A stretch of 58,197 nt of DNA from Patescibacteria group bacterium (GCA_041665545.1 JBAYIQ010000005.1:1-58197); one strand, 5' to 3'. Shown: positions 12,196-47,880, counted from the stretch's first letter. Made by a program: numbers and translations. The notes: generated from the sequence alone by a model not told the origin.

Positions 12196-12428
12196 AAAAA
12201 TTATTTTACTTTTTGTTGTCGCACTGTCAAACTACGCCGAATTATAAAATTCGAGGGGGTGCGGTAAGCAGGCCGTCCTTTTCTATTGCCAACTTTATGG
12301 TGCTGTTTCATGTTATAATTATAGCACATCATTGAATAATGACTCTATTACAGTAGCCAAGCGGGTTAATGAGATAGTGGCATTGACTTTATGTAATATA
12401 TATTGTAAAATCATCTGTGTTTAATTGA

Positions 12429-12478
12429 GCCGAAGTGGCCCGCCCGGCGCGCCAATGGCGCACCTTTGGCGGATGAGT
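12429..12478 (+). repeat. Partial duplicate of the tRNA-Leu 5' end (gccgaagtggc) followed by the GC-rich motif cccgcccggcgcgcc...tggcggatg
   Basis: An 11-nt match to tRNA-Leu positions 1-11. The motif is homologous to 13674..13715 upstream of GIY-YIG #2. Confidence 0.5.
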
Positions 12479-12542
12479 AGCTTGTTTCAATCAACTTTGG
12501 TTTAATTAAAAAAGCACGCTTAGAATTTATAATTTACTTTAA

Positions 12543-12629
12543 GCCGAAGTGGCGGAACTGGCAGACGCGCTGGACTCAAAATCCAGTGACCGCAAGGTCG
12601 TGGAGGTTCAAGTCCTCTCTTCGGTACCA
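12543..12629 (+). tRNA. tRNA-Leu (CAA), class II, CCA encoded
   Basis: Cloverleaf folded manually: acceptor gccgaag/cttcggt, anticodon loop cuCAAaa, long variable arm. Confidence 0.85.
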
Positions 12630-12718
12630 CTCGATTCGCCTTTTGCTTCGCAAAAGTCTCACTCGCGGTCTACGGTGCTTATCGCACCTCCGACCATTTC
12701 ACAATAAATAATCGAGTG
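12628..12718 (+). repeat. R1: ~91-bp element bounded by cactcgattc...gaatcgagtg inverted repeats, starting on the CA of the tRNA-Leu CCA end
   Basis: About 90% identical to R2 (13232..13323) and R3 (47629..47720, opposite strand). Internal hairpins cttttgc/gcaaaag and ggtgc/gcacc. Confidence 0.65.
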
Positions 12719-12796
12719 CCCTGCCATTCGGCCCTGAGGGGCCTCAGGCCCTGAACGGGAGCGAACGAAGTGAGTCGAAGGGCATAAACAATTTCA

Positions 12797-12813
12797 GGGC
12801 CGTTAGCTCAGTT
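12797..12813 (+). repeat. Partial duplicate (17 nt) of the tRNA-Ala 5' end, followed by a ~80-nt hairpin-containing insert
   Basis: gggccgttagctcagtt is identical to the first 17 nt of the tRNA-Ala at 12895. Confidence 0.55.
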
Positions 12814-12894
12814 TCGCCCACAGGGCGACCACCCAGTGGGTGGGGCTAGTCATGTTGATTTGCTCATTAAAGTTTTTACAAAAAATTATTCTTT

Positions 12895-12971
12895 GGGCCG
12901 TTAGCTCAGTTGGCTAGAGCGCTTCCATGGCATGGAAGAGGTCGCAGGTTCGACCCCTGTACGGTCCACCA
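12895..12971 (+). tRNA. tRNA-Ala (GGC), CCA encoded
   Basis: G3:U70 in the acceptor stem. Anticodon loop auGGCau. Confidence 0.85.
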
Positions 12972-13061
12972 TAAACCATTCGCTACGCTCAGGTTTATGG
13001 CACTGCCATTTTATTTAGGGCAGCGCCGTGAACTTGAGGAGCGTAAGCGACGAATAGTTCA

Positions 13062-13138
13062 CGGGGTGTGGCGCAGTTGGCTAGCGCGCACGCATGGGGT
13101 GCGTGAGGCCGGAGGTTCAAGTCCTCTCACCCCGACCA
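13062..13138 (+). tRNA. tRNA-Pro (GGG), CCA encoded
   Basis: C1:G72. Anticodon stem cacgc/gcgtg with loop auGGGgu. An upstream 9-bp hairpin (ccgtgaact/agttcacgg) overlaps the tRNA start. Confidence 0.8.
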
Positions 13139-13155
13139 ATTTATAAATTAATCGG

Positions 13156-13233
13156 GGCAGGGTAGCTCAGTTTGGTTAGAGCGTGGGACTCATAAGCCCG
13201 AGGTCGTGGGTTCGATCCCCACCCCTGCTACCA
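13156..13233 (+). tRNA. tRNA with CAT anticodon, elongator-type (Met, or Ile2 if lysidinylated), CCA encoded
   Basis: Loop cuCAUaa. C11:G24 in the D-stem. G1:U72 wobble. One mismatch at 31:39. Confidence 0.7.
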
Positions 13234-13323
13234 CTCGATTCGCCTTTTGCTCCGCAAAAGTCTCACTCGTGGTCTCCGGTGCTTATCGCACCTCCGACCA
13301 TTCTCCATATCATGAATCGAGTG
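13232..13323 (+). repeat. R2: second copy of the tRNA-3'-flanking inverted-repeat element
   Basis: cactcgattcgccttttgctccgcaaaag...catgaatcgagtg. Begins on the CA of the preceding tRNA. Confidence 0.65.
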
Positions 13324-13406
13324 TTCCGAGCGAAGTCGAGGGACATGAGATAAAGAGAAGCGCATCGAGGGACACGAGAAATCACCATTCTCCAAAAAAA
13401 AACGGT

Positions 13407-13652
13407 ATGAAAAAATTTTTCTTTTATTTTGCCCGATGTAACGATAATACCCTTTATGCTGGTTACACAAATAATATAAAAAATAGAGAAATAAAACACA
13501 ACGACGGTAAGGGCGCAAAATACACTAAATGTAGATTACCAATAAAAATAATATACTGGGAGAAATTTGATACCAGGATTGAAGCCATGAAACGGGAAGC
13601 ACAAGTAAAACGTTGGAGTAAAATAAAAAAAGAAAAATTAATAAAAAATTAA
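13407..13652 (+). CDS. Small GIY-YIG nuclease-superfamily protein (81 aa, YhbQ/UPF0213-like)
   Basis: FYFARCNDNTLYAGYTNN...KHNDGKGAKYT and a C-terminal RE...KRW helix. The 5' extension of the listed ORF overlaps a tRNA and R2 and was trimmed to the ATG at 13407. Confidence 0.75.
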   Translation: MKKFFFYFARCNDNTLYAGYTNNIKNREIKHNDGKGAKYTKCRLPIKIIYWEKFDTRIEAMKREAQVKRWSKIKKEKLIKN

Positions 13653-13653
13653 A

Positions 13654-13715
13654 TTTTTTACGACGCGGGGTAGCCCGCCCGGCACGCCTACGGCGAAGCC
13701 GTGGCGGACGGGAGC
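13654..13715 (+). repeat. 20-nt duplicate of the tRNA-fMet 5' end plus upstream T-run (ttttttacgacgcggggtag), followed by a GC-rich motif leading into GIY-YIG #2
   Basis: Exact 20-nt match to 13987..14006. Motif cccgcccggcacgcctacggcg...gtggcggacgg is homologous to 12440..12478. Confidence 0.6.
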
Positions 13716-13730
13716 AGTACCACACTGAAT

Positions 13731-13985
13731 ATGCATATGAAAATATTACTTTTTTATACTTATGTCCTAAAAAGTAAAAAAGATAACAAATTGTATGTTG
13801 GATATACCGATAATCTAAACAAAAGAATCCAAAAACATAATGATGGAAAAGTTGAATCAACAAAAAATAGAAGACCATTTACATTATTATATTTTGAAGC
13901 TTGCCTAGATAAGTATAAAGCAATAAAAAGAGAAAAATATTTTAAAACGGGCTTTGGTAGGAGATTTTTAAAAAGTAGGATATAA
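13731..13985 (+). CDS. Small GIY-YIG nuclease-superfamily protein #2 (~84 aa)
   Basis: YTYVLKSKKDNKLYVGYTDNLNKRIQKHNDGK. About 45% identical to #1. The listed ORF starts at GTG 13701; ATG 13731 or 13737 is more plausible. Confidence 0.75.
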   Translation: MHMKILLFYTYVLKSKKDNKLYVGYTDNLNKRIQKHNDGKVESTKNRRPFTLLYFEACLDKYKAIKREKYFKTGFGRRFLKSRI

Positions 13986-13996
13986 TATTTTTTACG

Positions 13997-14073
13997 ACGC
14001 GGGGTAGAGCAGTTGGCAGCTCGCCAGGCCCATAACCTGGAGGTCGCCGGTTCGAGTCCGGCCCCCGCTACCA
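13997..14073 (+). tRNA. tRNA-Met (CAT), initiator-like, CCA encoded
   Basis: Unpaired C1xU72, A11:U24 and loop ccCAUaa. The anticodon stem has only two of the three canonical G:C pairs. Confidence 0.7.
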
Positions 14074-14117
14074 ATTTATACAATCCGAGGTAGCTCAGTG
14101 GTAGAGCAGTTGGCTGT

Positions 14118-14703
14118 ACATTTACATCGTGTATGTGGTATACTTATTGATGTATGCCAGATACAAGAAAATATGTCGATCGTGCTGAGTATTTAAAACA
14201 AGCAGTTGCTAAACGTCGTAAAGATGTGAAAATAATGCTTGTAAAATATAAGGGCGGTAAGTGTAAGACTTGTGGCTATAAAAAATCCGTAGAAGCTCTT
14301 GAGTTCCATCATATAAATGAAAGAAAAAAGAAGTTTGGAATTTCTGGGCAAGGATTAACTAGATCTTGGAAAAGTGTAAAGCAGGAAGCTGATAAATGCA
14401 TCTTGCTTTGCGCAAATTGCCACAGGGAATTGCACGCAAAATAGTGCAGCTTCCTCAAGTAATTGAGGTTGACAAACGGGGTGAACTGTCCCGCAAAACG
14501 GGAGCCCGCCAAAGGCGGTGCCGGGAAGCCTAAGTCTAAAAGATATGGTAATCCGCAGCCAAGCCCTGAACCAGATGGTTCAGGGAAGGTTCAGAGACTA
14601 TCCGAAAGGAGTAGGCAGTATTTACTAGCCGAAGCGCCCCGCATCCTAAAAAATTATAGGATGATGATATAGTCCATCCCTTTAGGAAACTTAAGGATCG
14701 ATG
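14118..14703 (+). mobile_element. Group I intron (IC3-like) in the tRNA anticodon loop, carrying an HNH ORF
   Basis: By eye, matches conserved group I segments of the Anabaena tRNA-Leu and Azoarcus tRNA-Ile introns as recalled (atatggtaatccgcagccaagccct, agagacta, gacaaacggggtgaa). The 5' exon ends in U and the intron ends in G. Confidence 0.65.
14154..14444 (+). CDS. HNH homing-endonuclease-like protein (96 aa), intron-encoded
   Basis: CKTCGY...EFHHINERKK...CANCHRELH: HNH motif with zinc-binding Cys pairs. Confidence 0.75.
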   Translation: MPDTRKYVDRAEYLKQAVAKRRKDVKIMLVKYKGGKCKTCGYKKSVEALEFHHINERKKKFGISGQGLTRSWKSVKQEADKCILLCANCHRELHAK

Positions 14704-14907
14704 TAACCAATTGGTCGTGGGTTCAAATCCCTCCCTCGGAGCCATTAAAAAAATATCAACTTCTGTTGGTATTTTTTTAATCTTGGCAACACCTCCTTTT
14801 AGTCGGAAAAATTATTTATTCATTCCAAATTTTATGCCGAAGCCAAATAAAAAACCATCCTGAGTGTAAGTCGAAGGATGATTTTTTATTTTTAGTCGAT
14901 AAGTAAT

Positions 14908-21995: not shown

Positions 21996-22027
21996 GCCGT
22001 GGATTGTTGTCGGCTACTGGCCCGCGC

Positions 22028-22444
22028 CTAGGCGTGGACCTGGTAGACCGAATTGCCCCGAGCCGACTTCCAGCTGTCCGCCGATCCGTCGCGGACCAGC
22101 GCTTCGAGGTTGGACCTCACCAACTGGAACAGAAAGAAGTTCCGCTTCTCCCACCGATAGAGGCGCCGCATGACCATGCCAGCGGTCATGGGATGCCTCG
22201 CCCTCTGCATGAGCACGAGCACGCGCTCGCTCATGGGCTGATCGACCATGATCGGCGTGAACTTGACCTCGATGGCCACACCGTCCAGTTCTCCGACGGC
22301 GAGGATCGACGCCGGACGACGATCGCGCGCCCTGCGGATGAACCTCTCGGCCACGGGGAAGACCTTCCCAGCGAAGATCGCGGGCACAGTGATCGAAAGC
22401 ATGATGATGGCGATGATGAGCACGAAAATCTCGATCGGATTCAT
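22028..22444 (-). CDS. Membrane-anchored hypothetical protein (138 aa) in the GC-rich island
   Basis: GGAGG lies 5 nt before ATG. N-terminal TM helix IEIFVLIIAIIMLSITVPAIFAG followed by an Arg-rich soluble domain. The overlapping plus-strand ORF 21923..22534 was rejected. Confidence 0.55.
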   Translation of the reverse strand: MNPIEIFVLIIAIIMLSITVPAIFAGKVFPVAERFIRRARDRRPASILAVGELDGVAIEVKFTPIMVDQPMSERVLVLMQRARHPMTAGMVMRRLYRWEKRNFFLFQLVRSNLEALVRDGSADSWKSARGNSVYQVHA

Positions 22445-22596
22445 GACGCCTCCAATGGCTTGGGACCAGGAACAGTGACCTATATCACATTCATTGGCCT
22501 TTTATGGCCAAAATGCTTCGAAATTAATGCTTGATGAACTGTAAAACAGTATATCATAGCACAAAAAATAAAAGTTGTCAAGCCACGGTTAAAAAT

Positions 22597-22627
22597 AACC
22601 TTCGAGGTTGCCATAACCTCGAAGGTT
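22597..22627. promoter_or_regulatory. Perfect 13-bp inverted repeat AACCTTCGAGGTT-N5-AACCTCGAAGGTT between divergent island genes
   Basis: Seen directly. It lies ~55 nt upstream of a TTGACA-N16-TAGTAT promoter-like sequence at 22684..22711. Confidence 0.45.
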
Positions 22628-22869
22628 GGCCGTGTCTACTAGTATTGCACTGATTTGTTGAACCCACGCTACAAACACTTGACAAAATATTATTATTATG
22701 ATAGTATAAAATGTTTTGACCAAATAGCAAAAAATTGAGCTTTTGGTTAAACCAAAAGTTCTTTGAAATGTCATACATCACTCGTAAAAACAACTAATAA
22801 GATCGAGTTTTCTGTCCACAAATCCTATGGCCACAGTGTCAGTGCAACCACGTAACGAAAGGAGTTTCG

Positions 22870-23460
22870 ATGGAACACCAGCAGACCTTCTGGCACATGC
22901 TGGGGAACGACGTGGGGATGATGACGTTCGCCGTTCTGGGCTTCATTGGCGGAGTGTTCACTTTGATCACTCTGGCCTTCGGCCACGGCGACCACAACAT
23001 CGACCACGACTTCAGCGCGGGCGACCACGACTTCAGCGCGGGCGACCACGACAACAACGCCGGCCCGAACGTGTTCTCGTTCCGCAACATCATGCTCTTC
23101 GTCACCGGCTTCGGTGGAATCGGCATGCTGGCCAAGTACCATGGCGCAAGCTTCATTGTGAGCAGCCTCTGGGGCGCTTTCTCTGGCTTCATCATGGCAT
23201 TCGTCGGCTACCTGATCTACCGCGCCCTGTACAAGAGCCAGGCGACCTCGCACATCGACAACTGTTCGCTGTGCGGTTCGATCGCTCTGGTCGAACAGGC
23301 CATCGTCGCTAACGGCATGGGTATCATCGTGGCCGGAGGCGAGATTGGCCACCTCGTTCGCCTCCAAGCCAGAACGAAGGAAGGAACCCCGGTCGCAAAC
23401 GGCCGACAGGTCCGCATCCTGAATATCAACGGGACCGAAGCTCTGGTCGAGGCCCTCTAA
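22870..23460 (+). CDS. NfeD-like membrane protein (YqiJ-type: TM region + C-terminal OB-fold)
   Basis: AAGGAG RBS. Hydrophobic N-terminal half with HD repeats. C-terminal domain VANGMGIIVAGGEIGHLVRLQ...GRQVRILNINGTEALV. Lies immediately upstream of an SPFH protein. Confidence 0.7.
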   Translation: MEHQQTFWHMLGNDVGMMTFAVLGFIGGVFTLITLAFGHGDHNIDHDFSAGDHDFSAGDHDNNAGPNVFSFRNIMLFVTGFGGIGMLAKYHGASFIVSSLWGAFSGFIMAFVGYLIYRALYKSQATSHIDNCSLCGSIALVEQAIVANGMGIIVAGGEIGHLVRLQARTKEGTPVANGRQVRILNINGTEALVEAL

Positions 23461-23503
23461 TCCCTGCTCCAACACACCACCGTCTTCCCAAAGGAGTATC
23501 AAG

Positions 23504-25228
23504 ATGGAACAGTCCGCACACTTCATGCAGTACCTGATCCCCGCGATCATCCTGTTCGTGCTGATCGCCTTTCTGGGTGTGATCCGCCTGGCGGCCAAGA
23601 ACTACATCAAGGTGGCCCCGAACGAGGTGGCCATCATCAGCGGCAGCCGTCACAAGACGACGGTCACGCTGCCCGGCAAGGAGAACGAGCCCCCCACTAC
23701 GGTGGTGCGCGGATACAAGCTGGTCACCGGTGGCGCCTTCTTCAAGGTGCCGATCCGCGATCGGGTCGAGATCATGAAGCTCAATCTGATCCAGATCATT
23801 GTCCAGGTCACCAACGTGCCCGCCCTCAACGGCGTGCGCGTGACGGTCAAGGGCATCGCCAACATCAAGATCCTCTCCGACCAGGCCTCCCTGGCTCTGG
23901 CCGTGGAGCGCTTCCTGGGGAACAACCTCAGCGAAGTGGAACGTGTGGCCAATCAGAACCTGGAGTCCAACCTCCGCGCCGTCGTCGGCACGATGACGGT
24001 CGAGGATCTGATCCGGGACCGGGCACAGCTCCAGGCCCAGATCCTCCGGGAAGCGGTCAGCGACATGTCCAAGATGGGTCTCGGTGTGGACCTGATGAAC
24101 GTCCAGGAGATCACGGACGAGAACGGGTACATCGAGGCCCTGGGCATGGCGCGAACCGCCGAGGTCAAGCGCGACGCAACCATCGGCAAAGCCGAGGCCC
24201 AGCGTGACGCCGACATCCGTTCCGCGGAAGCCGGACGGCTGGGCGAGACGGCCAAGGCCGTGGCTGCACAAGCCATCTCGGATGCGCAGAAGGCCAAGGA
24301 TATCCGCGTTGCCGAGAACGAGAGTCTGGTCAAGGCACAGCAGGCCAGGATCCCGATCATTGCGGAGCAGGCTCGAGCCGAGGAACAGAAGGCGCTCAAC
24401 ATCAAGACCGTCGAGGCCGATCGTGCCAAGACCGAAGCCGAGATCGCCCTGCAGCAAGCGGCTCAGCGCCGGCACGAGGCCGAGCTGAACGCAACTACGA
24501 TCATTCGGGCCACGAAGGACAAGGAGGCCCTAGTCATCGCTGCCGAGGCCAAGGCCCTGGCGGCGGAACGGGAAGGCGAAGCCTACCGCATCCAGCACGA
24601 GATGGAAGGCAAAGGTGACCAGGCCAAGCTGACTGCTGTGGCTCAGGGACGCAAGGAAGCGGCGGCGGCTACCCAGACCGAACTGGAAGCCGCGGCTGCC
24701 GGTAAGAAGGCCGGACTGCTGGCTGACGCCGAGGGTGTCAAGCAGAACGGTCTGGCCAGGGCTGCCGGAGTCGAAGCCGTTGGTGTGGCTGAGGCCACGG
24801 CTTCGGCCAAGAAGGCTGAGGCTTACACCCTGCTTGATGCCAAGGGCATCATGCTCATGCTGCTCCAGCTGTCGCCGGACGTCATCAAGGCGCTCGGCGT
24901 GGCTGTCGGCGACGCCATCAAGCCGTCGGCAGATGCCATCGGACAGGGCCTGGGTAACATCAAGGAACTGCGCATGGTGGATCTGGGTGGCGGTTCGGCT
25001 GGCGGGGCTGGCGGGGGCAATGTCCTCAATCAGTTCGTCAACCAGCCCATCCAGACCTTGTATGGCCTGATCGAACGGATGAAGGCCACGGGCATGGCAC
25101 CGGCGTTCATGAAGCTGGCCAAGGAGAAGCTCGGGCTGGATCTCACGGACGTCTTCGCTGGTGCTCCTACCCAGACGACGTCGGACGACACGCACAAGAA
25201 GGGTGGTGATGACACGGCTACGGCTTAG
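23504..25228 (+). CDS. Flotillin-like SPFH/band-7 protein (YqiK-like) with Ala/Glu-rich coiled-coil
   Basis: N-terminal TM helix, SPFH core (KVPIRDRVEIMKLNLIQI...LMNVQEITDENGYIEALG) and an extended EA-rich repeat region. Confidence 0.85.
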   Translation: MEQSAHFMQYLIPAIILFVLIAFLGVIRLAAKNYIKVAPNEVAIISGSRHKTTVTLPGKENEPPTTVVRGYKLVTGGAFFKVPIRDRVEIMKLNLIQIIVQVTNVPALNGVRVTVKGIANIKILSDQASLALAVERFLGNNLSEVERVANQNLESNLRAVVGTMTVEDLIRDRAQLQAQILREAVSDMSKMGLGVDLMNVQEITDENGYIEALGMARTAEVKRDATIGKAEAQRDADIRSAEAGRLGETAKAVAAQAISDAQKAKDIRVAENESLVKAQQARIPIIAEQARAEEQKALNIKTVEADRAKTEAEIALQQAAQRRHEAELNATTIIRATKDKEALVIAAEAKALAAEREGEAYRIQHEMEGKGDQAKLTAVAQGRKEAAAATQTELEAAAAGKKAGLLADAEGVKQNGLARAAGVEAVGVAEATASAKKAEAYTLLDAKGIMLMLLQLSPDVIKALGVAVGDAIKPSADAIGQGLGNIKELRMVDLGGGSAGGAGGGNVLNQFVNQPIQTLYGLIERMKATGMAPAFMKLAKEKLGLDLTDVFAGAPTQTTSDDTHKKGGDDTATA

Positions 25229-25320
25229 TAGAACTGACTGTCTCTGACGGTCTGAACTCTGAGCCAAAGCTTTCATAGAGGGGAGGCGGTGCTACACAGC
25301 ACCGCCTCCCACTCCAAAAC

Positions 25321-25359
25321 AAGAGGGATCTTTCGTAACCCCTCTTTTTTTATTTTTTA
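25321..25359 (+). terminator. Rho-independent terminator after the flotillin gene
   Basis: Stem aagaggg/ccctctt followed by tttttatttttt. A separate 13-bp-stem hairpin at 25281..25310 has no T-run. Confidence 0.6.
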
Positions 25360-25405
25360 ACCAAAATAAAAAGGGTACTCCCTAATTACACTGTCAACAC
25401 AAAAA

Positions 25406-25456
25406 GACCCTGCACCGGAGCCACGTAAGTGGCGACTGGTACAGGGTCGATTTTTT
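25406..25456. terminator. Bidirectional terminator (nested hairpin gaccctg...cagggtc) flanked by A- and T-runs
   Basis: Serves plus-strand island transcripts and minus-strand ORF 25463..26422. Confidence 0.55.
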
Positions 25457-25462
25457 ATACTT

Positions 25463-26422
25463 TTATTTTACTGGCACTGGTGGCGCCACTTGAACTGGCG
25501 AACCATCCTTATTGAAGGCCTGCACTTTTTGAGTCAAACACTGATAGCCAATACCATGTGGCCAGCGCGTGTCATAATAATAAGCCATGTCTTTGTTTTG
25601 AGTGTTGGCTGAAGCGTCAGTCAAAAAAGTAGTGCACAATTCATACTCCCGATCGCCTTTGACCTGGTATTTAAAAATTTCTTGAGTCTTGGGGTTTTTT
25701 AATAAATCATCACTAATATATGTGTACTCTGCTTTTAGGGCGTTAAAATCCGCTGGTAATTTTTTATATGTTTGATAATAATTATTTAAATCCTGATCAA
25801 TCTGATAAAAATTATTAGTAACCCTTTGATCAATCTGTCTGTTTCTAGCTACTTGAGGAGATTCTACTATAAACAGCGAAGCCACAAAAGTGACAATAAT
25901 CACTGCCAGTGAAGCAAAAAAGTATATTTTTATAACACTGTCTTTATAGCCAGCAGTTTTTTCCCGTCTAATATCATAAAAATAAAAGGAAAAAACAATG
26001 CCCGAAATAACCAGAGTGGTTAAAGATTTGAGAATAATTTGAGTAGTCAAAGCGCCGTTTAAAAAATTGACCAGAATAGCAATCAGAGAGCCAATCATTA
26101 CTAAAAAGGCAATGAAGATGATTAAATAAGTCAACCATTTGCGCACGCCTGATTCTTTGTCTAGCTCGCCTTTGTACAAACTGCCATAAATAAACTTATT
26201 GCAAAAATAATAAGTTGGTGTGGCAATCACTAGTGAGGCGATAGCAAACTTTAAGATATCCGAAGAAAAAGCCGCATTGTTTTGACTCAAAATATCAACA
26301 ATATATTTGTTGATCAATTGAAAAATTATTTGTCCAACGTTGACGGACACGAAGCCCAAAGCCACCAACGCTAACAAATAAAGAAACGCAAACTTCGCTG
26401 AATTGTTTTTTGTGTTATCCAT
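25463..26422 (-). CDS. Hypothetical membrane protein (319 aa; ~5 TM plus C-terminal soluble domain)
   Basis: Six-frame ORF with hydrophobicity pattern. Confidence 0.5.
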   Translation of the reverse strand: MDNTKNNSAKFAFLYLLALVALGFVSVNVGQIIFQLINKYIVDILSQNNAAFSSDILKFAIASLVIATPTYYFCNKFIYGSLYKGELDKESGVRKWLTYLIIFIAFLVMIGSLIAILVNFLNGALTTQIILKSLTTLVISGIVFSFYFYDIRREKTAGYKDSVIKIYFFASLAVIIVTFVASLFIVESPQVARNRQIDQRVTNNFYQIDQDLNNYYQTYKKLPADFNALKAEYTYISDDLLKNPKTQEIFKYQVKGDREYELCTTFLTDASANTQNKDMAYYYDTRWPHGIGYQCLTQKVQAFNKDGSPVQVAPPVPVK

Positions 26423-47628: not shown

Positions 47629-47720
47629 CACTCGATTCATGATACGAAAATGGTCGTAGGTGCTGAAAAGCACCGGAGACCACGAGTGAGTTTTTTGCTA
47701 AGCAAAAAACGAATCGAGTG
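47629..47720 (-). repeat. R3: third copy of the tRNA-3'-flanking inverted-repeat element (after tRNA-Ser)
   Basis: The reverse complement aligns with R1 and R2 and starts on the CA of the tRNA-Ser CCA. Confidence 0.65.
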
Positions 47721-47808
47721 GCGGAGAGGACAGGATTTGAACCTGCGAGGGATTTTACTCCCTACTCGCTTTCCAAGCGAGCGCACTAGACCACTATGCG
47801 ACCTCTCC
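47719..47808 (-). tRNA. tRNA-Ser (GGA), class II, CCA encoded
   Basis: Acceptor ggagagg/cctctcc, G73, anticodon loop uuGGAaa, long variable arm. Confidence 0.85.
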
Positions 47809-47880
47809 ATATTATAAATATTATTTACGCTTTTCCCGCCCGCCCCGCAGCGCGGGGCAAGCGGGATATGCGACCTCTCC
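47809..47880 (-). repeat. 14-nt duplicate of the tRNA-Ser 5' end (ggagaggtcgcata) separated from the gene by a GC-rich hairpin insert (ccccgcagcgcgggg)
   Basis: tatgcgacctctcc at 47867..47880 matches 47795..47808. Confidence 0.55.

Follow-up and report, generated by a model that had tools for sequence, protein, structure and literature searches.

Four of the six tRNA genes in a 58,197-nucleotide (nt) contig from a metagenome-assembled genome of the Patescibacteria (candidate phyla radiation, CPR), hereafter the window, each have an exact copy of their own 5' end upstream, and the parts follow one order at every site: the partial 5' copy, a GC-rich palindrome, either an AT-rich spacer or a gene for a small GIY-YIG nuclease, and then the intact tRNA gene (Table 1). 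In our view the four sites are probably palindrome-based mobile modules in integrated form, members of a family common among Patescibacteria. The tRNA genes concerned are those for Leu, Ala, fMet and Ser; by ARAGORN and Rfam, five of the six tRNA genes of the window are clustered at 12.5–14.1 kb.

The four duplications had been picked out in an earlier reading of the DNA by itself (the sequence-only reading) and all of them were re-found. The Leu copy is 11 nt long (12429–12439 = 12543–12553) and grows to a 15-nt match with one mismatch once four leader bases are counted; the Ala copy has 17 nt (12797–12813 = 12895–12911); the fMet copy has 21 exact nt from 13653 (13653–13673 = 13977–13997+), made up of 11 leader nt and tRNA positions 1–10, and can be extended to 26 nt at 92% identity; and the Ser copy, on the minus strand, has 14 nt (47880–47867 = 47808–47795). 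As a given 11-mer is expected by chance about 1e-4 times in 450 nt, duplications at four of six tRNA genes are far above chance. At three of the four sites the tRNA sequence restarts 3' of the palindrome for 5–6 nt (fMet AGCAGT, Ala GGCTAG and Leu GCGGA, the last ending at 12473; Table 1), so that the upstream copy is a truncated 5' piece of the tRNA, 14–23 nt long, into whose D-arm region the palindrome is inserted. The earlier description of each insert as a short copy followed by a GC-rich motif was therefore right about the copies but not about the palindrome as the start of the insert, since it sits inside this longer fragment. The partial copies are located immediately behind the native promoter-like sites of their tRNA genes. 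The Leu and fMet inserts do share the GC-rich motif with which they had been said to open (39 nt, 79% identity). Folding and an Rfam scan had been suggested as checks on this motif: all four GC-rich segments fold into hairpins; covariance models applied to 12429–14006 returned nothing besides tRNAs even at E-values up to 10, and Rfam gave no match to the palindrome, the partial copy or the 3' trailer.

Short repeats can mis-join metagenome assemblies, and the identical tandem units at loci L143 and L208 described below could in principle be assembler behaviour. An assembly or annotation artefact is nevertheless so improbable as a general explanation that we set it aside, because the same sequence is present independently in JGI/NCBI and ENA assemblies and the same arrangement occurs in a 94%-identical relative from the Logan assemblies; it also recurs in independent samples and at more than 50 loci from different studies, and partial copies of 10–28 nt are too short to mislead k-mer assemblers. 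The assembly error that the sequence-only reading had named as a possible refutation is thus argued against.

Relatives of the window were located through the neighbouring xth gene, the product of which is 90% identical in amino acids (aa) in L086 and 83–84% identical in L088, L211/L212 and L214. A search for empty sites in these relatives, as had been proposed, found them: in L086 the flanks are the same as in the window and the intact tRNA-Leu and tRNA-Ala genes follow them directly, and the promoter-side flank of tRNA-Leu precedes an intact gene in L086, L088, L211 and L214. At tRNA-Pro the situation is reversed: the window's site is empty and that of L086 is filled, with a partial copy into which the 30-nt Ala double hairpin of the window, in identical form, is inserted after GCGCAGTT. 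None of L088, L211/L212 and L214 has an insert at Leu, Ala, Pro or fMet. Given empty sites in every outgroup, gains at Leu and Ala in the window lineage and at Pro in L086 are more parsimonious than repeated precise losses. A further polymorphic site is tRNA-Asn, which is empty in L088 and in L211 and L214 carries a third nuclease gene of the same design (GIY#3, 82 aa) with the palindrome T(A/C)CGCCAGCTGGCGGAG; GIY#3 is found again at tRNA-Asn with the same palindrome in three further lineages, its stop codon lying within the tRNA. This stop codon is the TAG at tRNA-Asn positions 8–10 (L211, L214, L218–L228), and RNase P processing of the tRNA would consequently strip the GIY#3 message of its stop codon.

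In L088, L211 and L214 the tRNA-fMet gene lies between those for Pro and Met, whereas in the window and in L002 it lies behind the first nuclease gene of the window (GIY#1) and together with the second (GIY#2), a difference in position from which we infer that the whole fMet unit including the tRNA was relocated; it may have moved, or may have been acquired along with a complete tRNA gene. L086 also has no tRNA-fMet gene between Pro and Met.

The generality of the design was assessed in a scan of one genome per species, which gave at least 581 loci of the 78-aa GIY-YIG family, of which 80 were retrieved and 76 were informative. A co-oriented tRNA gene begins within 25 nt past the GIY-YIG stop codon at 43 of the 76 and within 130 nt at 60 of the 76, whereas tRNA density predicts about 0.5. 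Over all loci fetched, 51 of 220 distinct tRNA genes, representing 19 isoacceptors, have the full design of partial copy, GC-rich insert and resumed tRNA. The 51 inserts are 18–72 nt long with a mean of 71% GC, and the palindrome enters after tRNA position 9–13 or 17–22, at the loops or helix junctions of positions 9–10, 13 and 18–21; a single case (L208) has it in the anticodon loop. Partial copies end at tRNA position 14–35, and the distance from partial copy to tRNA is 282–344 nt in units with an open reading frame (ORF) and 58–103 nt in those without. The suggestion that the GIY-YIG gene belongs to the unit is thereby borne out in dozens of genomes and at 19 isoacceptors. Nuclease subfamilies go with their own palindromes: the 78-aa family to which GIY#2 belongs pairs with a CCCGCCCGC...GCGGGCGGG-type palindrome adjoining the ORF (no further than 150 nt on its 5' side or 130 nt on its 3' side) at 63 of 80 loci; the 82-aa GIY#3 subfamily (more than 440 relatives) is found with TCCGCCAGCTGGCGGAG, always at tRNA-Asn, in four lineages; and other subfamilies accompany other hairpins (L058, L081, L053). 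Palindromes occur on both sides of the ORF in L014, L059, L046, L057 and L085, and units form tandem arrays in L085, L011, L143 and L208. At tRNA-Lys UUU there is a variant in which the order is ORF, spacer, palindrome and tRNA and the duplication is absent. The loci lacking a tRNA gene were checked for rRNA genes, none was inside one, and rRNA genes as alternative hosts were accordingly dropped. At L208 (5380–6420), two tandem GIY-YIG units contain tRNA-Thr(CGU) fragments with the palindrome in their anticodon loop and are followed by the intact tRNA gene, past which lies the 3' fragment of a second, different tRNA-Thr(CGU), beginning at a palindrome; this fragment looks like the leftover of a replaced resident gene.

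Both ORFs of the window match PF01541 (scores of 62.1 and 64.9 bits, the curated cut-off being 22.6; E = 6e-17 and 8e-18). That the two are related stands, with an identity of 41% and not the roughly 45% first estimated; the stop codon of GIY#1 is at 13652, one base ahead of the duplicated fMet segment, as had been read. GIY#2, first placed at 13731..13985, is a GIY-YIG gene that probably starts at 13737, in agreement with relatives and with its database entry. Among 30 family members Y9, R30, H34 and E66 are invariant and Y7, Y20 and N35 nearly so, and these residues occupy the positions expected of the catalytic Tyr, Tyr, Arg, His/Asn and Glu of GIY-YIG enzymes. The AlphaFold model of GIY#2 is a confident GIY-YIG fold (pLDDT 95.1), with helices flanking a three-stranded sheet; Foldseek matched it best to UPF0213 (1zg2) and the structure-specific nuclease Slx1 (TM 0.7), and also to the catalytic domain of I-TevI. 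From the conserved residues and the model, enzymes of the GIY#2 family are predicted to be active. The proteins are 78–84 aa long, the whole length being a single catalytic domain, and contain no DNA-binding domain. More than 1,400 database relatives of the 78-aa family are known, nearly all from CPR bacteria, and the family is 60–75% identical across CPR phyla. A viral collection of 2.9 million contigs gave only two matches to it, on which a phage origin was rejected, and assignment to a known defence system was likewise rejected as there was no meaningful PADLOC match. GIY#1 is found directly upstream of tRNA-Asn in relatives L088 and L214.

These properties bear on classical free-standing homing, in which the enzyme would cut the duplex of an insert-free tRNA gene and its own gene would be copied across by double-strand-break repair, with palindrome and copy conferring immunity or insulating the gene. 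GIY-YIG genes in tRNA clusters are indeed known homing enzymes, as with SegB of phage T4, which resembles the present case in being encoded among tRNA genes and polymorphic between relatives, but SegB-type genes are phage-borne and have neither a palindrome nor a regenerated 5' end (PMC2330249). Here too, empty and filled alleles exist and GIY#3 is bound to a single target, tRNA-Asn. A bare catalytic domain, without the DNA-binding domain that is joined to the nuclease domain in the Seg and I-TevI homing endonucleases, found in one 70%-identical family at 19 isoacceptors, makes classical homing unlikely; ORF-less palindrome modules are equally duplicated and polymorphic, a partial target duplication is not predicted, and the palindrome also occurs far from tRNA genes.

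Comparison of the window with L002 gave ratios of nonsynonymous to synonymous substitution (dN/dS) of 0.04 for GIY#2 (dS 0.63) and 0.10 for GIY#1, showing that the ORFs are maintained under strong purifying selection and are not decaying. The sequence-only reading, which had envisaged a mobile element in the 5' region of tRNA genes that later decays, is therefore upheld in its first part, by the polymorphic inserts and the regenerated tRNA genes, but not in its second. Such selection raises the alternative of a domesticated host system, in which the nuclease–palindrome pair would restrict or steer incoming single-stranded DNA (ssDNA) in natural transformation, like Neisseria SsnA, with the tRNA as a stable, expressed home and no present mobility. 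Along with the low dN/dS values, a palindrome unchanged between the window and L002, the identity maintained across CPR phyla, the Ssn precedent and the dispersal of the palindromes would all suit it. We rate domestication alone as having a rather small chance of being correct, in view of the reciprocal presence and absence at Leu, Ala and Pro between genomes related at 90%, the tandem arrays and many tRNA hosts, and the partial tRNA duplications with palindrome that it leaves unexplained. Domestication and residual mobility are not mutually exclusive and can coexist.

The palindrome behaves as a dispersed repeat that can be inverted. An identical 47-mer occurs in both orientations relative to tRNA and ORF, the L031 copy being the exact reverse complement of those in L012 and L062, and the fMet palindrome of the window has a flipped copy, identical at 38 of 39 positions, at the tRNA-Asn of L065. 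Palindromes are 94–100% identical where the neighbouring ORFs are only 65–76% identical. The fMet palindrome is 100% conserved in L002, and between window and L002 none of the 70 nt of left copy and palindrome has changed, compared with 4 changes in the next 17 nt and a dS of 0.63 in the ORF. That both orientations occur with the sequence conserved argues for a role of the palindrome in DNA and not in RNA. In the D-loop the palindrome joins the tRNA at GG^TAGAGC or, in the opposite orientation, at GGTA^GAGC. Inserts adjoin TA in 30 of 51 cases against 19.4 expected, and TA follows the palindrome in 19 of 103 metagenomic copies; a strict rule of insertion next to TA was rejected, as this is enrichment only. 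A 20-nt query detected at least 125 metagenomic occurrences of the palindrome, and among the matches listed 25 were near both a tRNA gene and a GIY-YIG gene, 17 near a tRNA gene only, 8 near a GIY-YIG gene only and 75 near neither.

Dispersal of this kind invites the view that the events are independent: REP-like palindromes would insert anywhere and survive in an essential tRNA gene only within a partial tandem duplication arising by slippage or break repair, and the GIY-YIG gene would be an unrelated neighbour. The palindrome is often distant from GIY-YIG genes, ORF-less modules exist, GIY-YIG genes occur upstream of tRNA genes with neither palindrome nor copy (GIY#1 in L088 and L214, and a further four loci), and two spacers weakly resemble native upstream sequence. 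However, palindrome type follows GIY-YIG subfamily, which contradicts a coincidence of palindromes and nuclease genes; practically every partial copy has its palindrome, and unit length is uniform at 282–344 nt. We regard this explanation as improbable.

The sequence-only reading took the ORF-less inserts to be deletion derivatives, and this was discarded after three tests failed to find an ORF remnant: an nhmmer profile of 81 ORFs detected nothing in the ORF-less spacers, Smith–Waterman comparison of the spacers with all ORFs was no better than with shuffles, and neither were position matrices of ORF start and end applied to 10 spacers. When spacers were compared with native upstream flanks, the Ser spacer showed a similarity reached by 2 of 500 shuffles and the Leu spacer a weak one (37 of 500), and five others showed none; the sequence that the Ser spacer weakly resembles lies some 60 nt 5' of the partial copy. 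The duplication accompanies the palindrome and not the ORF.

In the mobile-module reading, the autonomous form carries the gene for a GIY-YIG protein of about 80 aa (fMet) and the ORF-less form a 25–70-nt AT-rich spacer (Leu, Ala, Ser), and in both the full tRNA gene begins only a few bases further on; the ORF-less form would be mobilised in trans. The nuclease would be an Ssn-type hairpin-specific endonuclease with the palindrome as its putative cognate site, presumably attacked as a single strand, and a cut beside the palindrome would leave recombinogenic ends inside a short stretch of tRNA homology. Host recombination between partial and full tRNA copies could then lead to Campbell-like, 'ends-in' integration and excision of a unit consisting of leader and tRNA positions 1..N, palindrome, tRNA positions N+1..M and ORF. 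The tRNA would be kept functional and the nuclease gene would end up behind the tRNA promoter. Ends-in integration would account for the order of parts, the presence of the palindrome solely in the promoter-proximal copy, the regeneration of the gene and the tandem arrays; plain staggered-cut target-site duplication was rejected, as it does not account for a palindrome inside the promoter-proximal copy only. Precise excision via the direct repeats would give empty sites, and could also keep the two copies identical.

Several points weigh against the proposal. The Campbell-like route requires an element-borne copy of the target 5' end, and for this reason fits spread among homologous tRNA genes better than first jumps; it also gives no account of the spacers in ORF-less modules, which are unrelated. 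The SRM pattern HGTCWY...RNCYNB was present in 0 of 51 inserts with flanks on either strand, and the idea that the palindromes are SRM/NTS repeats was abandoned. The polymorphisms could in principle be precise losses and not gains. Finally, the fMet unit has no presence/absence polymorphism at its present position, and this, with the strong conservation of the GIY-YIG genes, would also fit a domesticated function.

Ssn proteins are GIY-YIG enzymes shorter than 100 aa which bind to hairpin repeats in single-stranded form and cleave next to them; their genes are repeat-flanked (Chenal et al., 2025; PMC11893778), and the authors remark on the IS-like hairpin–gene–hairpin layout (PMC11893778). The CPR proteins are likewise single-domain GIY-YIG proteins of less than 100 aa, a presumed cognate GC-rich hairpin flanks the gene (on both sides in L014, L059 and L046), and the hairpin is dispersed as a repeat conserved in sequence besides structure. 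By analogy, Ssn/NTS is the closest characterised system; the nearest solved sequences to the GIY#2 family are UPF0213 proteins. Unlike NTS/SRM, the CPR palindromes are longer (18–72 nt), and the Ssn paper (PMC11893778) mentions tRNA genes 0 times and describes neither partial target duplication nor presence/absence polymorphism.

Other systems share some of these features. Integration that duplicates part of a tRNA gene while a complete, functional copy remains is also the mode of tRNA-integrating islands and prophages, which are kilobase-sized, depend on a tyrosine or serine recombinase and as a rule duplicate the 3' part of the gene; the CPR units have no recombinase, duplicate the 5' part, measure about 0.1–0.33 kb and hold a palindrome in the displaced copy. 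Within the units GIY-YIG ORFs are the only ones detected, with no tyrosine or serine recombinase and no HUH/Y1 transposase among them. REP/BIME–RAYT and IS200/IS605 elements, which move by hairpin-guided single-strand transposition (PMC11893778), resemble the CPR units in their dispersed palindromes, in a small dedicated enzyme encoded beside the repeat and in non-autonomous copies that outnumber autonomous ones, but theirs is an HUH/Y1 transposase with covalent intermediates, whereas a GIY-YIG hydrolase cannot transfer strands alone. CPR rRNA genes are reported to carry non-intron insertions with GIY-YIG ORFs, the insertions being placed at the top or base of a stem-loop (PMC11270868). These are small ORFs inside stable-RNA genes of the same host group; they differ in lying in rRNA, and a regenerating duplication or palindrome partner was not reported. 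Mobile GC clusters of yeast mitochondria are GC-rich palindromes in an AT-rich genome, often by tRNA genes and endonuclease ORFs; the host is another one, no linked GIY-YIG partner has been shown for them and they have no tRNA 5' duplication. Full-text literature searches returned GIY-YIG genes in phage tRNA clusters, the CPR rRNA insertions and Ssn, and a palindrome-interrupted 5' tRNA duplication with a GIY-YIG gene was not found; the earlier view that the arrangement was not a described one agrees with the searchable literature. There is a fair chance that it represents a distinct class of mobile element. Tentatively, we would go further and suggest as a possibility an unrecognised minimal class, consisting of a palindrome with or without a nuclease of about 80 aa and lacking a transposase or integrase, which enters tRNA loops, probably single-stranded and folded, duplicates the 5' part, flips its palindrome, forms arrays and perhaps carries whole tRNA genes, and in which Ssn-type nucleases would have their selfish origin.

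Table 1. Coordinates in the window of the tRNA-associated modules, their parts and the adjoining structured elements.
Feature	Position	Strand	Remark
Native promoter-like site of tRNA-Leu, TTGACT-17-TAAAAT	12383..12411	+	Directly 5' of partial copy
Partial tRNA-Leu 5' copy: 4 leader nt (1 mismatch) and tRNA 1–11	12425..12439	+	Empty site in L086
Leu GC-rich palindrome, degenerate relative of fMet palindrome; ends GCGGA	12440..12473	+	79% to fMet motif
AT-rich spacer of ORF-less Leu module; promoter-like TTAAAA-16-TATAAT	12474..12542	+	No similarity to GIY-YIG ORFs
Intact tRNA-Leu(CAA)	12543..12629	+	
Structured 3' element, copies	12630-12790, 13234-13400	+	
Partial tRNA-Ala 5' copy, positions 1–17	12797..12813	+	L086 site empty, flank identical
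Double hairpin TCGCCCACAGGGCGA CCACCCAGTGGGTGG within D-loop of partial tRNA-Ala copy	12814..12843	+	
Resumed tRNA-Ala GGCTAG, positions 18–23	12844..12849	+	
AT-rich spacer of ORF-less Ala module	12850..12894	+	ORF remnant not detected
Intact tRNA-Ala(GGC)	12895..12971	+	
tRNA-Pro(GGG), empty site in window	13062..13138	+	Ala-type double hairpin module there in L086
GIY-YIG gene #1 (GIY#1), 81 aa, UPF0213-like subfamily	13407..13652	+	PF01541
Partial tRNA-fMet 5' copy: 11 leader nt and tRNA 1–10	13653..13673	+	
GC-rich imperfect palindrome CCCGCCCGGCACGCC...GGCGGACGGG, presumed cognate site of nuclease #2	13674..13712	+	
Resumed tRNA-fMet AGCAGT, positions 11–16	13713..13718	+	
GIY-YIG gene #2 (GIY#2), 82 aa, 78-aa CPR family; alternative start 13731	13737..13985	+	PF01541
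Short leader from stop codon to regenerated tRNA-fMet; duplicated in left copy	13986..13997	+	
Intact tRNA-fMet(CAT)	13998..14073	+	
Structured 3' element, copy	47718-~47600	-	
Intact tRNA-Ser(GGA)	47719..47808	-	
AT-rich spacer of ORF-less Ser module	47809..47833	-	
Ser GC-rich palindrome TCCCGCTTGCCCCGCGCTGCGGGGCGGGCGGGA	47834..47866	-	-20.8 kcal/mol, z -4.6
Partial tRNA-Ser 5' copy, positions 1–14; promoter-like site 47929-47901 just upstream	47867..47880	-	

Other elements were observed in and around these loci. Immediately 3' of the CCA of tRNA-Leu, tRNA-Met and tRNA-Ser there is a conserved structured element of about 95–165 nt, which has ACTCGATTC/GAATCGAGT as its closing stem, hairpins inside and a tail of GAGCGAAG...GAGTCGAGGGACA, with compensatory changes in the diverged L002 copy. 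Its core 18-mer occurs three times against 0.04 expected, and one copy precedes GIY#1; L088 and L214 lack the element, L211 retains just a short hairpin of it, and Rfam gave no match to it. An extra GC-rich palindrome of 36 nt (about 12724–12759) lies inside the Leu 3' element and is missing from the otherwise identical L086 sequence; it is another small palindromic insertion polymorphism. The tRNA-Asn gene of the window (14087–14745) has its anticodon loop split by a group I intron (RF00028, 14473–14696, 81 bits) which carries an HNH endonuclease ORF (14154–14444); this intron is absent in L002, L088, L211 and L214, and the tRNA-Asn gene of a Saccharibacteria genome (L226–L228) is apparently interrupted at the same place. 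At 22000–26000 there is a GC-rich island (54–56% GC against about 40% elsewhere) with a Band_7/SPFH-domain ORF (23504–25228) and several GC-rich hairpins, which may have been horizontally acquired. A pair of bAvd and reverse-transcriptase genes resembling a diversity-generating retroelement stands beside xth in L211 (7751–9148) and L212 (4607–5623); the window has no such pair at that place.

A family of palindrome-based mobile modules would explain the abundance and tRNA adjacency of small CPR GIY-YIG genes, which are often annotated 'excinuclease ABC subunit C', and would add to the known ways of targeting tRNA genes one in which the 5' end is regenerated without a recombinase. Hairpin-specific ssDNA nucleases would gain a concrete genomic life cycle to test, and the many natural pairs of enzyme and palindrome would be candidates for sequence-specific ssDNA cutters. 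In practice, partial tRNA copies and palindromes give rise to strain-level variation and to mis-annotated tRNA genes in metagenome-assembled genomes.

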